Source: Rhodoferax sp. (GTDB lineage Bacteria > Pseudomonadota > Gammaproteobacteria > Burkholderiales > Burkholderiaceae_C). Taken from it: a DNA stretch of 64,000 nucleotides. Every line of letters starts with the position of its first letter. The first letter of the stretch is position 1. A program made the translations under genes and the position numbers. The notes below the pieces were generated by a model. It searched no databases. It worked only from the letters and a program-made list of their open reading frames with translations, and was not told the DNA's origin. Positions 18,454 through 31,451 of this stretch are shown here, piece after piece. The stretch lies in assembly GCF_023701345.1 (NCBI RefSeq), contig NZ_JAMPXE010000002.1:14109-78108 (forward strand), given 5' to 3'.

Positions 18454-20715
<2,262 letters not shown>

Positions 20716-20767: not shown

Positions 20768-21706
20768 TCAGGACGGGGACAGCTCAGGCCAATACAAGCG
20801 CATCGGGTTGGCCACCAGCAGCTGGTACTGCAGCGCTGCGGTGGGGGCGATGTGCGGAATAAAGTCGACCAGCAGGCCGTCGTCGGGCATGTGGTCCTTG
20901 AGGTTGGGGTGCGGCCAGTCGGTGCCCCAGAGCACGCGGTTCGGGAACTCTGCAACGATCGCCCGGGCAAACGGCACCACGTCGCGGTAAGCGTTCTGCT
21001 CGCCGTTCAGGGCTTTCGGGCCGGTCACGCTCAGGCGCTCGGGGCAGCTGACCTTGCTCCAGACGTTGGCGTGCTCGCGCATGAATTTCTGGAACAGGGC
21101 AAACTGCGGGCCGTCCACCGGCAGCGACACGTCGGGGCGGCCCATGTGATCGACCACCACGGTGGTGGGCAGCGCCGTAAAAAAATCCCACAGTTCGGGC
21201 AGATCCACCGCTTCAAAATAGATCACCACATGCCAGCCCCAGTGCTTGATGCGCGCGGCAATTTCCATCAGCTCGTCCTTGGGCGTGAAGTCCACCAGGC
21301 GCTTGACAAAGTTGAAGCGAACGCCGCGCACACCGGCGTCGTGCATGGCCTGCAGTTCGGTGTCGCTCACGCTGCGTTTCACGGTGGCCACGCCGCGCGC
21401 CCTGCCTTCTGAATGGATGAGCGCATCGACCAGCGCGCGGTTGTCGGCGCCATGGCAGGTGGCCTGCACAATCACGTTTTTGTCGAATCCGAGGTGGTCG
21501 CGCAGCGCAAACAGCTGCGCCTTGGAGGCATCACACGGCGTGTACTTGCGCTCGGGGGCATAGGGGAACTCGGCACCCGGGCCGAACACGTGGCAATGCG
21601 CGTCCACCGCACCGGCGGGCAATTTGAACGTGGGCTTGGCAGGACCGGCGTACCAGTCCATCCAGCCGGAGGTTTTGGTGAAATCACCTGTGGTGGCTTG
21701 GCTCAT
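20768..21706 (-). CDS. ligI: 2-pyrone-4,6-dicarboxylate hydrolase
   Basis: DAHCHVFGP, VQATCHG, RFNF, DHMGRP, WGTDWPHP. Confidence 0.93.
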   Translation of the reverse strand: MSQATTGDFTKTSGWMDWYAGPAKPTFKLPAGAVDAHCHVFGPGAEFPYAPERKYTPCDASKAQLFALRDHLGFDKNVIVQATCHGADNRALVDALIHSEGRARGVATVKRSVSDTELQAMHDAGVRGVRFNFVKRLVDFTPKDELMEIAARIKHWGWHVVIYFEAVDLPELWDFFTALPTTVVVDHMGRPDVSLPVDGPQFALFQKFMREHANVWSKVSCPERLSVTGPKALNGEQNAYRDVVPFARAIVAEFPNRVLWGTDWPHPNLKDHMPDDGLLVDFIPHIAPTAALQYQLLVANPMRLYWPELSPS

Positions 21707-22635
21707 CGTTCATTCCTTGGTTTGACCTGCGCGAGCATGCGGTCGGCCTCGACACGCCAGTCTGCGCTGCGGGCGAATTCAGGCGTGCCTTTGGGGCCGA
21801 ACACACCGCTGTCGGCCAGATCGGCCACCCAGGCCTGGCGCTCGGCGGTTCCCGACGCTGACCAGGGGGTCAGACCGGCATCACGCACGGTCTCGGCCAC
21901 TTCACGCACTTCTTCGCTGCGGCGTCGGCCATGCTCGATGACGCGTTGAAAGAAATAGGCGGCCTGTTTTTCCCAGTCGATGCCGGGGAAGGTCTCATAG
22001 AGTGAGGCCACCACCGCGTCTTCCACGCCGTAGTGGCGGGCTGTGGTGAAGCTCTCGATCACCATGGCCTCCAGCCCCTTGATCATGACGCTGCGGCACA
22101 TCTTGGTGGCACTGGCCACGCCCAATTGCTCGCTGGCAACCTTGGCGGCAAAGCCCATCGCATTGAGCAGCGGGCACAAGGCATTGGCGTGTGCTCCCCC
22201 CAGCAGCAACGGCACCTTGATGCGGTACGGCGGGATGCTGGTCATGACGGCACCTTCCACATAACGGCCACCGGCTGCGTCGATCGAGGCAGCAGCACGC
22301 TGCTTGGCACCCGGAGAAGCCGAGTTGAAGTCAAGGAAGAAGCTGCCTCGCCGGACTGAGTCGGCACAGGCCTCTGCCACCCGCACGGTCTGGCTGGCAG
22401 TGACCGCGCTGATGATCAGGTCAGCGCCCGCCGCCAATTCACCGCTGGCGCCGAGCAAAGCCACACCATGCTGTGCCGCATGGGTCTGCAGGGGCGCGGC
22501 GGTGTCCGCGTTGTCCAACTTGAGGTCATAGGCGCTGACGGCGATGCTCTGGGCGCGCAGGTCTTCTGCCAGAATGCGGCCCACCTCGCCGTAACCGACC
22601 AGGCCAACGCGCCATTGTTTGGGATCTGTTTGCAT
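21703..22635 (-). CDS. NAD(P)-dependent oxidoreductase (6PGD/3-hydroxyisobutyrate DH-like N-domain, DUF1932-like C-domain)
   Basis: GLVGYGEVG, DFNSASP, KMCRSVMIKGLEA, HGRRRSEE. Confidence 0.8.
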   Translation of the reverse strand: MQTDPKQWRVGLVGYGEVGRILAEDLRAQSIAVSAYDLKLDNADTAAPLQTHAAQHGVALLGASGELAAGADLIISAVTASQTVRVAEACADSVRRGSFFLDFNSASPGAKQRAAASIDAAGGRYVEGAVMTSIPPYRIKVPLLLGGAHANALCPLLNAMGFAAKVASEQLGVASATKMCRSVMIKGLEAMVIESFTTARHYGVEDAVVASLYETFPGIDWEKQAAYFFQRVIEHGRRRSEEVREVAETVRDAGLTPWSASGTAERQAWVADLADSGVFGPKGTPEFARSADWRVEADRMLAQVKPRNER

Positions 22636-22645
22636 GGGGAGGTGT

Positions 22646-23341: not shown

Positions 23342-23893
23342 TCAGGTGGGGGACGGCGCCTGGGTGATGTGCCGCACATGCAGCGACAGGCCAAGCGCCG
23401 CCATGTGGTTGCTGTTGCGACTCAGGATGGTCTCGGACAGGGGCAAAAACTGGGCTTCTTCAAAAGTGGCGTGGGCCTGGTAATCGTTCACCAGTTGCTG
23501 CACGGCGGCGGCATCGAGCAAAGCGGTCTGCCCTTTGGCCATTTTTTTCAGCTGGGGTTCCAGTTTGGCCCACATGGCTTCAATCTGCCGGTGTTCACGG
23601 GTCAACCGGTCGGTGATGGCCTTGACGTGCGTCAGCTCGGCGCCGGGCTCGGCGCTGGCCAGAACGGCTTCAAACAGCACCCGCTCTTCTTCCTCATGGT
23701 GATTGAAGATGACGTCACGAAAGAAGTTGCGCGTGCTCTCGGCGGCCTGACGCGTCCGCTCGGCGGCCTGCGCCTGGGCCGGCAAATCTTCCATGACCGT
23801 CAGTTGCCGCAGGATGCCTTCGTGGCAATGCGAAAAGTTGCTGATGGGGGCGTTATCGGTCGCCATCGGGGGTGATTGGTTTGTGCTGGCCAT
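23342..23893 (-). CDS. Hemerythrin-like (HHE cation-binding) protein
   Basis: His/carboxylate pattern SHCH, HHEEEE, REH and HATFEE in a predicted four-helix bundle. Confidence 0.8.
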   Translation of the reverse strand: MASTNQSPPMATDNAPISNFSHCHEGILRQLTVMEDLPAQAQAAERTRQAAESTRNFFRDVIFNHHEEEERVLFEAVLASAEPGAELTHVKAITDRLTREHRQIEAMWAKLEPQLKKMAKGQTALLDAAAVQQLVNDYQAHATFEEAQFLPLSETILSRNSNHMAALGLSLHVRHITQAPSPT

Positions 23894-30463: not shown

Positions 30464-30495
30464 ATAACAACTTGGCATAATTGGCATCTTGTTAT
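30464..30495. promoter_or_regulatory. Candidate LysR binding region
   Basis: T-N11-A at 30465-30477, inverted ATAACAA/TTGTTAT, and TTGGCAT repeated directly, between the divergent ligU and LysR genes. Confidence 0.4.
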
Positions 30496-30542
30496 GGTTA
30501 ACCCTTAATCCCACAACACAGACACTTCACCGACGACAGCCC

Positions 30543-31451
30543 ATGGACCTGAAACAACTCGAATACTTTGTGCGCGTGGCCGAGCTTGGCAGTTTTACCC
30601 GCGCCGCCATTGCCCTGAACGTGGCGCAACCGGCACTAAGCCGTCAGGTGCGCCTGCTGGAAGTGGAGCTGCGGCAAAACCTGCTGACGCGCAACGGCCG
30701 CGGCGCCTTGCCCACCGAGGCCGGCAAACTGCTGCTGGCGCATGGTCGCGGCATCCTGCACCAAGTGGCACGTGCACGTGAAGAGTTGGGCCGGGTGCGC
30801 GGCTCGCTGGCGGGCAGAGTGGCCGTGGGCCTGCCGACCAGCCTGGCGCGGGTGCTGACCGTACCGCTGATCCGGGCCCATCAAACCGAATTGCCCGATG
30901 CCACGCTGGCCATCAGCGAAGGCTTGTCGATGCCCATGCAGGAGTCGCTACTGGCCGGGCGGCTCGACATTGCGGTGCTCTACAACGCCCAGCCCAGTTC
31001 CGACATCGACATCACCCCGCTGCTCGAAGAAGACCTGCTGCTGGTGCAACGGCGCCCGCCCGGTCTGGCCGAAGAACCGCCACCCGGCCCCATCACACTG
31101 CGCGAACTGGCCCGCTTGCCGCTGGTCATCCCGACCCGGCCCAACGCCATCCGCATGCAGGTGGAGACCGAACTCGCCAACCTGGGTTGTCGCCTGAACA
31201 TGGCACTTGAAATTGATGGGGTATCCGCGATTCTGGATCTGGTGGCAGACGGAGCCGGCAGCGCCGTGCTGTCGCGCAACGCAGTGGCCAGTTCGATCCG
31301 GCCCTCCGCATTCACCGTGCGCACCATCACGGACCCGGTATTGCGCACCAAAATCTGCATGGCCACCAGCGCACTTAGGCCCACCACACTGACGCAGCAA
31401 GCCACGCTGGCGCTGCTGCAGCGCACGGTGCAGCAGGTTTTCAAGCTGTAA
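30543..31451 (+). CDS. LysR-family regulator of the lig cluster
   Basis: MDLKQLEYFVRVAELGSFTRAA...QPALSRQ. Divergent from ligU. Confidence 0.92.
   Translation: MDLKQLEYFVRVAELGSFTRAAIALNVAQPALSRQVRLLEVELRQNLLTRNGRGALPTEAGKLLLAHGRGILHQVARAREELGRVRGSLAGRVAVGLPTSLARVLTVPLIRAHQTELPDATLAISEGLSMPMQESLLAGRLDIAVLYNAQPSSDIDITPLLEEDLLLVQRRPPGLAEEPPPGPITLRELARLPLVIPTRPNAIRMQVETELANLGCRLNMALEIDGVSAILDLVADGAGSAVLSRNAVASSIRPSAFTVRTITDPVLRTKICMATSALRPTTLTQQATLALLQRTVQQVFKL

Follow-up and report, generated by a model that had tools for sequence, protein, structure and literature searches.

A DUF1932-family dehydrogenase encoded in the protocatechuate 4,5-cleavage operon of Rhodoferax, a probable accessory oxidoreductase of ring-fission intermediates

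The protocatechuate (PCA) 4,5-cleavage pathway is generally regarded as having all of its steps assigned (LigAB, C, I, U, J and K), and LigC, the dehydrogenase of 4-carboxy-2-hydroxymuconate-6-semialdehyde (CHMS), is its only accepted NAD(P)-dependent step. The window analyzed here, a stretch of 64,000 nucleotides from Rhodoferax sp. (contig NZ_JAMPXE010000002.1), carries within such an operon an additional dehydrogenase gene, located between ligK and ligI. The question raised by this locus is which reaction, if any, the additional enzyme contributes to the pathway. The gene is the following:

21703..22635, minus strand: DUF1932-type NAD-binding dehydrogenase of 310 aa; open reading frame starting with ATG; matches to PF09130 and PF03446; best PDB matches 4EZB, 3QSG and 1I36

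Hereafter, this protein and its homologues are called DUF1932 DH (for dehydrogenase). We consider it probable that DUF1932 DH works as an accessory oxidoreductase of the pathway, with ring-fission intermediates as its substrates. Regarding the reaction itself, the reading that we favor, with a probability of roughly 0.35, is an NAD+-linked oxidation at the node formed by CHMS, 2-pyrone-4,6-dicarboxylate (PDC) and 4-oxalomesaconate (OMA), parallel to LigC; its substrate, direction and cofactor are what we infer from the genomic context and the protein family. The enzyme would act where ring-fission products reach the PDC/OMA oxidation level, on a substrate two electrons more reduced, which would be the lactol of CHMS or else a similar di- or tricarboxylate of the hydroxy or lactol type, and its product would be a pyrone or an oxo-acid used by LigI and the lower pathway. 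In the operon of the window, it would provide a second, NAD-linked entry beside the NADP-preferring LigC and, in clusters that encode a VOC-family dioxygenase and no LigC, it would be the only dehydrogenase. This node is favored because of the natural fusions of DUF1932 DH to a VOC dioxygenase or to LigI, the placement of its gene with ligAB-ligC in sphingomonads and its constancy in VOC clusters devoid of LigC, a context which points to the CHMS/PDC/OMA node at least as much as to the products of LigK. We count as further support the layout of one metagenomic locus (L215), the recurrence of lactonases as partners, the linkage to LigK, two residues, Asp37 and Lys178, and the nearest characterized folds, all described below.

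Natural fusions were sought among longer proteins homologous to DUF1932 DH. The commonest one joins an N-terminal dehydrogenase to a C-terminal LigI and was found in at least 10 clusters of 590-611 aa with the same junction, one of which (P0127) has five 596-aa members on five contigs. A metagenome scan with P0127 returned unfused relatives only, with an in-frame stop between the two genes. In two other types of fusions, the dehydrogenase is C-terminal and preceded either by an aldo/keto reductase (P0138, 648 aa, more than 10 contigs) or by a VOC dioxygenase (P0142, 550 aa, three contigs), and single examples each of LigK-DH and LigU-DH fusions were also identified. The VOC-DH and DH-LigI fusions are colinear with the reaction order dioxygenase, dehydrogenase, lactonase.

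The gene clusters containing DUF1932 DH adopt six architectures. The first, ligJ-ligK-DH-ligI-ligAB-ligC, is found in many Burkholderiales and in some Bradyrhizobium and Rhodopseudomonas (74-78% identity), as well as on a 28-kb Diaphorobacter plasmid, where it is flanked by insertion sequences (IS), and on Acidovorax carolinensis plasmids. The identity of the cluster between Burkholderiales and Bradyrhizobium/Rhodopseudomonas (74-90%) implies that the lig cluster, DUF1932 DH included, has moved by horizontal transfer. On the 28-kb plasmid of Diaphorobacter sp. MNS-0 (L124, NZ_CP080763.1, 5391-14172), the whole lig cluster adjoins IS1595 and IS91 transposases and includes a truncated gene for a LysR substrate domain, DUF1932 DH and a terminal aldo/keto reductase, and the A. 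carolinensis plasmids carry the same DUF1932 DH sequence. In the second architecture, DH-ligJ-ligA-ligB-ligC is divergent from ligR and ligK-ligU-ligI, or the dehydrogenase gene lies directly 5' of ligC or ligAB. It occurs in sphingomonad-type loci (L135, L144, L152, L154, L156, L161-L163, L165 and L166) and in other alphaproteobacterial genomes, Novosphingobium resinovorum pSA2 and Sphingobium TomTYG72 being annotated examples. The third corresponds to gallate clusters which encode GalA and DUF1932 DH (Ralstonia solanacearum, Pseudomonas oryzihabitans and L140).

The fourth architecture combines a VOC-family dioxygenase with a GalB-type hydratase, an aldolase and a tautomerase (Rhizobium Q54, Agrobacterium pAt, Pantoea and six sampled genomes). 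DUF1932 DH is present in all six sampled clusters of this composition, and no LigC homologue was found at E<=1e-20 in five complete genomes with VOC-type clusters, three of which have an unlinked LigI-like gene. In genome G755, which has a VOC, GalB, aldolase, tautomerase and DUF1932 cluster and no LigC homologue, a stand-alone LigI-like gene 60% identical to that of the window (G755:C19:50006-50863; L262:8998-9933) is located among housekeeping genes (ATP synthase, phosphoribosyl pyrophosphate synthetase-like). The fifth architecture, very common in Bradyrhizobium, has neither a dioxygenase nor a PrpF tautomerase and encodes, in this order, an Amidohydro_2 protein (lactonase-like), a DctA-like symporter, a GalB-like protein, LigK, a PhtD-like protein and DUF1932 DH. 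The PhtD-like protein (289 aa, cytosolic) is homologous to 4,5-dihydroxyphthalate decarboxylase (PDB 9JP7, E 1e-26) and has no Pfam or NCBIfam match; as it has no signal peptide and matches 9JP7, we rejected it as a transporter binding protein. Its gene is found at L022:7135-8004 (Bradyrhizobium shewense), L025:6979-7995, L145, L151 and, on a Roseomonas plasmid, L126:4216-5064. In clusters of the Bradyrhizobium family, the last gene after those for LigK and the PhtD-like protein encodes either a VOC dioxygenase (L159, L160 and L164) or DUF1932 DH (L145 and L151), and two of the three genomes with the VOC variant have no DUF1932 homologue at E<=1e-40.

The sixth architecture consists of minimal sets, i.e., a ligK-DH pair in Azospirillum lipoferum and TctC-DH-LigI in Bradyrhizobium, the genomes with the latter set having a single DUF1932 DH copy unlinked to the LigK-like gene. 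Across these clusters, lactonases recur as partners, with the overlap of the dehydrogenase gene and ligI in the window, an overlap of amidohydrolase and dehydrogenase genes on Roseomonas plasmids and, in Bradyrhizobium, the TctC-DH-LigI set and clusters containing both Amidohydro_2 and DUF1932 DH. The metagenomic locus L215 reads ligJ-ligK-DH-ligI-VOC, after which the strand block ends at a convergent gene of the major facilitator superfamily (MFS); there is no ligAB or ligC between the VOC and MFS genes, the contig starting inside ligJ so that the upstream side is unseen. We also considered DUF1932 DH as a replacement of the LigU/GalD tautomerase and rejected it, since the window has both, as do most VOC and gallate clusters.

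That DUF1932 DH occurs with every type of ring-cleaving dioxygenase, together with the VOC-DH and aldo/keto reductase-DH fusions, would suit a carbonyl or quinone reductase which keeps gallate and protocatechuate reduced or which, with the recurring aldo/keto reductase, detoxifies a reactive carbonyl by-product. Its accessory and dispensable nature (see below) would also be in line with such a function, as would the aldo/keto reductase gene 3' of ligC on the Diaphorobacter plasmid and the genes pcmF, fldC and pcaG described in PMC8431788. Such a role appears nevertheless improbable: DUF1932 DH is found in dioxygenase-free clusters (Bradyrhizobium, Azospirillum), its most frequent fusion partner is LigI and no quinone reductase is known in this fold class.

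The association with LigK was quantified in 401 evenly sampled Pseudomonadota genomes, using E<=1e-40 for DUF1932 DH homologues and the TIGR02798 cut-off for LigK. DUF1932 DH is present in 26 of these genomes and LigK in 25 of the 26, versus 52 of 401 overall. The two genes are at most 10 kb apart in 22 of the 26 genomes and at most 4 kb apart in 21; conversely, 22 of the 52 LigK genes (~40%) have DUF1932 DH within 10 kb. Among 401 genomes of the window's own order, DUF1932 DH is present in 22 and LigK in 42, with a distance within 10 kb in 14 of the 22, and a tblastn survey placed DUF1932 DH at most 9 kb from the aldolase in 32 of 81 LigK-centered loci. Homologues as distant as 34-40% identity still show this proximity, which extends over several classes and five cluster architectures. 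The physical linkage of DUF1932 DH to ligK-, ligJ- and ligI-type genes is thus conserved across taxa; an earlier note on this DNA, made from the sequence alone, had proposed to measure co-occurrence with ligK, and the lack of conserved linkage that it had envisaged as an outcome is not what these genomes exhibit.

With LigK as its most constant partner (25 of 26 genomes), DUF1932 DH might instead be a 2-oxo-acid/2-hydroxy-acid oxidoreductase working at the level of OMA, CHA (4-carboxy-4-hydroxy-2-oxoadipate) or oxaloacetate. This main alternative has three versions. The enzyme could convert oxaloacetate to malate, taking the LigK product before LigK decarboxylates it; it could be a metabolite-repair enzyme, re-oxidizing OMA or CHA that stray reductases have turned into 2-hydroxy forms; or it could feed imported non-aromatic hydroxy-tricarboxylates into the OMA pathway. 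Nearly all contexts (LigAB, GalA, VOC and dioxygenase-free) share OMA, CHA and the LigK products as metabolites, the ligK-DH pair stands alone in Azospirillum lipoferum, and the LigK-DH and LigU-DH fusions join the dehydrogenase to enzymes of this level. Moreover, a feeder would be in keeping with the frequent co-transcription of DUF1932 DH and carboxylate transporters (DctA-like, TRAP, TctC, ABC), while the dispensability of DUF1932 DH suits a repair or pull role, and an invariant Arg181 next to the putative catalytic Lys together with an H-G-x-R-R motif could bind extra carboxylates. However, the pathway is described with LigABC, I, U, J and K alone and this alternative gives DUF1932 DH no necessary reaction; malate dehydrogenase is already present in every host and the NAD+-linked oxidation of 2-hydroxy acids is thermodynamically uphill. 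In addition, the commonest fusion involves LigI and not LigK, the sphingomonad gene is found with ligAB-ligC and not with ligK-ligU-ligI, and in 4 of the 26 genomes DUF1932 DH is unlinked to LigK or LigK is missing, Bradyrhizobium sp. ma5 having no true LigK. On balance, we regard an activity at this level as possible but slightly less probable than one at the CHMS/PDC/OMA node.

The operon of the window is organized as follows, from the divergent regulator to the last gene of the strand block:

30489..31451, plus strand: LysR-type regulator, divergent; PF00126 and PF03466
29281..30405, minus strand: ligU, PrpF-type OMA isomerase, first gene of the strand block; PF04303, 343 bits
26205..29222, minus strand: TRAP transporter dctM/dctQ/dctP; PF06808, PF04290 and PF03480
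24994..26208, minus strand: pobA; TIGR02360, 665.9 bits
23933..24964, minus strand: ligJ-type OMA hydratase (Amidohydro_2, 343 aa); PF04909, 182 bits; 81-92% identity to ligJ-position genes elsewhere
23342..23893, minus strand: hemerythrin-like gene, between ligJ and ligK; PF01814, 58 bits
22646..23329, minus strand: ligK, CHA aldolase/oxaloacetate decarboxylase; TIGR02798, 411.9 bits against a cut-off of 304.5
20768..21706, minus strand: ligI-type PDC hydrolase (Amidohydro_2); PF04909, 187.5 bits; 81-93% identity to ligI-position genes of related clusters
20272..20715, minus strand: ligA, PCA 4,5-dioxygenase subunit; PF07746
19404..20270, minus strand: ligB, PCA 4,5-dioxygenase subunit; PF02900 and NF009903, 578 bits
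~18454..19400 (start approximate), minus strand: ligC, CHMS dehydrogenase (Gfo/Idh/MocA and OxRdtase_C domains); PF01408 and PF19858, 310 bits; 76-93% identity to ligC-position genes in related clusters

Transcription on the minus strand proceeds in the order ligU, dctP, dctQ, dctM, pobA, ligJ, hemerythrin-like, ligK, DUF1932 DH, ligI, ligA, ligB, ligC. Most related clusters, L005 among them, lack the hemerythrin-like gene, which L004 and L006 have. At the junctions, the ligK stop codon (TGA) is followed by a 10-nt spacer and the ATG of DUF1932 DH, whose own TGA shares an ATGA with the ligI start, just downstream of an AAGGAA Shine-Dalgarno sequence; a site scan detected no promoter-like or terminator-like site in or flanking the gene. 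Given this operon structure and the divergent LysR gene, DUF1932 DH of the window would be induced by pathway substrates via the LysR regulator. The profile matches and the layout bear out what the earlier note had described, namely an open reading frame between ligK and ligI overlapping the ligI start, its Lig neighbors and an NAD(P)-dependent oxidoreductase of the 6-phosphogluconate/3-hydroxyisobutyrate dehydrogenase superfamily inside a complete PCA 4,5-cleavage operon. A dN/dS of 0.14-0.20 against five orthologues at 75-80% identity shows that this is a real gene, kept by purifying selection. The databases contain more than 100 clusters with 78-93% identity to DUF1932 DH (Rhodoferax, Polaromonas, Derxia, Aquabacterium, Azohydromonas, Sphaerotilus, Ideonella); those that carry a name are called 'NAD(P)-dependent oxidoreductase' or 'DUF1932 domain-containing protein'. 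The matches of DUF1932 DH in the ESM Atlas are 'NAD(P)-dependent oxidoreductase' clusters only.

Which kind of enzyme this is can be approached through its domains. Residues 199-270 match PF09130 (DUF1932) with 65 bits for a cut-off of 25, and residues 9-128 match PF03446 (NAD_binding_2) with 35.3 bits for a cut-off of 21; by these profiles, the protein belongs to the DUF1932 family of NAD_binding_2 proteins. The NCBIfam equivalogs score far below their thresholds (TIGR01692, 34.8 vs 291.6; NF008592, 32.4 vs 397; TIGR01505, 23.8 vs 340.75), and for this reason we rejected the assignment as a 3-hydroxyisobutyrate dehydrogenase or tartronate semialdehyde reductase equivalog. A CHMS dehydrogenase fold of the LigC type was likewise rejected, since PF01408 and PF19858 match the separate ligC gene and not DUF1932 DH. 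The fold of LigC/PmdC is thus unrelated to that of DUF1932 DH, although both are encoded in the same operon, and LigC prefers NADP whereas DUF1932 DH carries an NAD-type Asp. A LigC-like activity of DUF1932 DH would be one by analogy.

Twenty homologues at 42-80% identity were aligned to examine the motifs. The GxGxxG dinucleotide-binding fold typical of the superfamily (G14-Y-G16-E17-V-G19) is invariant in all 20, the structural model beginning beta-alpha-beta, and so is Asp37 at the end of strand beta-2. In the beta-hydroxyacid dehydrogenase superfamily, an Asp at this position marks NAD over NADP and a Lys is the catalytic residue; the invariant Asp37 suggests that the predicted cofactor of DUF1932 DH is NAD rather than NADP. 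Also invariant are a D-x-N-S-x-S-P stretch leading to K111, Lys178 within G-x-x-S-A-x-K-M-C-R-S (G172-V-A-S-A-T-K178-M-C-R181-S182 in the window) and, in the DUF1932 domain, an R-V-x-x-H-G-x-R-R-x-x-E motif. Against the G-x-G-x-x-x-K-x-x-x-N consensus, as assigned by eye, the Asn positions are Arg181/Ser182, and where superfamily members have the substrate-binding D-A-P-V-S-G-G motif DUF1932 DH reads V-E-G-A-V-M-T. There is no Pfam match to the NAD_binding_11 C-terminal domain (PF14833), the C-terminal domain being DUF1932. With the Ser-Gly-Gly motif and the Asn after Lys replaced, substrate binding is likely to differ from that of textbook superfamily members. DUF1932 DH is probably a soluble, NAD(H)-specific oxidoreductase of the beta-hydroxyacid dehydrogenase superfamily, in its DUF1932 clade.

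The AlphaFold (AF2) model (mean pLDDT 95.6, pTM 0.89) has as its top structural matches 4EZB (Sinorhizobium meliloti), 3QSG (Alicyclobacillus acidocaldarius) and 1I36 (MTH1747), three structural-genomics entries without assigned substrate whose fold, with two domains of the DUF1932 type, is that of DUF1932 DH (phmmer E 1.9e-49, 2.4e-33 and 1.3e-20, respectively; Foldseek TM 0.69-0.83). The K-M-x-R-S and E-H-x-x-R-R motifs are common to DUF1932 DH, 4EZB and 3QSG. The next matches are 3-hydroxyisobutyrate, tartronate-semialdehyde, 2-(hydroxymethyl)glutarate, gamma-hydroxybutyrate and L-serine dehydrogenases. The nearest characterized folds, 5Y8G (3-hydroxyisobutyrate dehydrogenase), 1VPD (tartronate semialdehyde reductase) and 3CKY (2-(hydroxymethyl)glutarate dehydrogenase), have in common with DUF1932 DH a Rossmann N-terminal domain, a helical C-terminal domain and a catalytic-type Lys in a G-x5-K motif; however, identity is 14-20% and their C-terminal domain is NAD_binding_11 instead of DUF1932. 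Full-text literature searches for DUF1932, PF09130, 4EZB, 3QSG and 1I36 retrieved no functional paper.

The gene itself has already been noticed in the literature as an open reading frame whose function is listed as unknown. In Delftia sp. Cs1-4, pmd cluster 1 on the phn island contains an 'NAD-binding dehydrogenase' of unknown function (Hickey et al., 2012; PMC3318190), which, from the described layout, is presumably a DUF1932 DH. In Novosphingobium aromaticivorans DSM 12444, SARO_RS14280, also listed as of unknown function in a 2025 study, is the first gene of the SARO_RS14280-ligJA1B1C operon, which is activated by LigR through binding to its promoter (PMC12710314). In a LigR mutant, PCA, vanillate, syringate or 4-coumarate fail to induce the transcripts of this operon, and expression of the flanking genes is ~10- to 20-fold lower; the ligR-flanked layout was reported in 82 of 152 genomes of known aromatic-metabolizing bacteria, all Sphingomonadales (PMC12710314, the one paper retrieved for SARO_RS14280). 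As its layout (ligK / ligR - oxidoreductase - ligJ) matches that of the DUF1932 DH loci L144, L165 and N. resinovorum pSA2, we infer by synteny, and not from its own sequence, that SARO_RS14280 is a DUF1932 homologue. Sampled homologues with such an arrangement share just ~38-40% identity with the window protein, and SARO_RS14280 precedes ligJ-ligAB-ligC whereas the gene of the window lies between ligK and ligI.

Is the enzyme then required by the pathway? Genus-mates can be compared directly: G032 has ligK-DH-ligI, whereas in G179 and G339 ligK is directly followed by ligI, the operon being the same in all other respects. DUF1932 DH is also missing from six Comamonas-type pmd clusters of our samples and, judging from the literature layout, presumably from the pathway of Sphingobium SYK-6. 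Because a genus-mate carries the same operon without it, DUF1932 DH is a dispensable, facultative accessory gene of the pathway. The interpretation initially proposed for this locus is hence partly retained: an unassigned gene linked to PCA 4,5-cleavage it is, while a missing step or a repair role would be a candidate reading only, the pathway running without the gene in a genus-mate with the same operon and in Comamonas-type clusters. The substrates then proposed (4-hydroxy-4-methyl-2-oxoglutarate, CHA, an OMA tautomer, oxaloacetate or pyruvate) would likewise be candidates. Accessory genes are frequently inserted between ligK and ligI (window 21703-22645; L134, L210, L217, L226, L242, L241, L246 and L248), Comamonadaceae-type junctions containing one or two genes for TctC solute receptors, or DUF1932 DH followed by a pobA-like gene, or no gene at all.

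A gene which is merely carried along, or whose product senses NAD as a partner without catalyzing anything, and which has no part in the chemistry of the pathway, would conform to the intact operons of G179 and G339 and to the TctC and pobA insertions at the same junction. Such a gene would yet hardly remain linked down to 34-40% identity in several classes and five architectures, keep a dN/dS of 0.14-0.20 and invariant Rossmann and putative catalytic-Lys motifs, be fused repeatedly and independently to pathway enzymes and, for a homologue, belong to an operon with LigR-dependent transcripts (flanking genes ~10- to 20-fold lower in the LigR mutant; PMC12710314), and we consider this explanation very improbable. 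A recent passenger in Rhodoferax was rejected on the basis of orthologues 74-91% identical across Burkholderiales and Bradyrhizobium and of the low dN/dS. Both the passenger and the carbonyl or quinone reductase fit the evidence worse than an activity at the CHMS/PDC/OMA node or at the OMA/CHA level.

Several observations weigh against the NAD+-linked oxidation at the CHMS/PDC/OMA node that we favor. Of 42 loci with LigB-type, LigC and lactonase genes, 20 contain both LigC and DUF1932 DH, so the role would be redundant in the window; on the same count, we rejected DUF1932 DH as a replacement of LigC. True gallate clusters (Ralstonia, P. oryzihabitans and L140), whose chemistry yields no aldehyde or lactol, contain DUF1932 DH, and it is also present in dioxygenase-free clusters and in the bare ligK-DH pair of Azospirillum lipoferum. 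The VOC clusters are mostly without lactonase (none is linked in five of the six, two of these five genomes being devoid of any LigI-like gene) so that, if the product is PDC, another enzyme must open it. Lastly, no beta-hydroxyacid dehydrogenase is known to oxidize lactols, and the serine of the usual substrate-binding motif is replaced in DUF1932 DH (EGAVM).

A broader proposal can also be made. DUF1932 DH might be a non-orthologous NAD+ route from the ring-fission semialdehyde or lactol to PDC/OMA, the sole dehydrogenase of the hitherto undescribed VOC-dioxygenase pathways and, in dioxygenase-free Bradyrhizobium, the entry enzyme for imported non-aromatic lactol or hydroxy-carboxylates. We hold this wider scheme to be doubtful; if it were true, the OMA-CHA pathway would be a hub for more than aromatic carbon.

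Finally, DUF1932 DH is unlikely to be idle, since it lies near 22 of 52 LigK genes, has a homologue activated by the pathway regulator and has natural fusion partners in LigI, a ring-cleaving dioxygenase and an aldo/keto reductase. It represents a defined gap in a lignin-degradation pathway. Its reaction, once known, could alter the flux and cofactor models used in PDC production, account for the operation of VOC-type clusters devoid of LigC and reveal whether non-aromatic acids, too, enter the lower pathway. The Pfam family DUF1932, for which three solved structures are awaiting annotation, would thereby acquire its first function.

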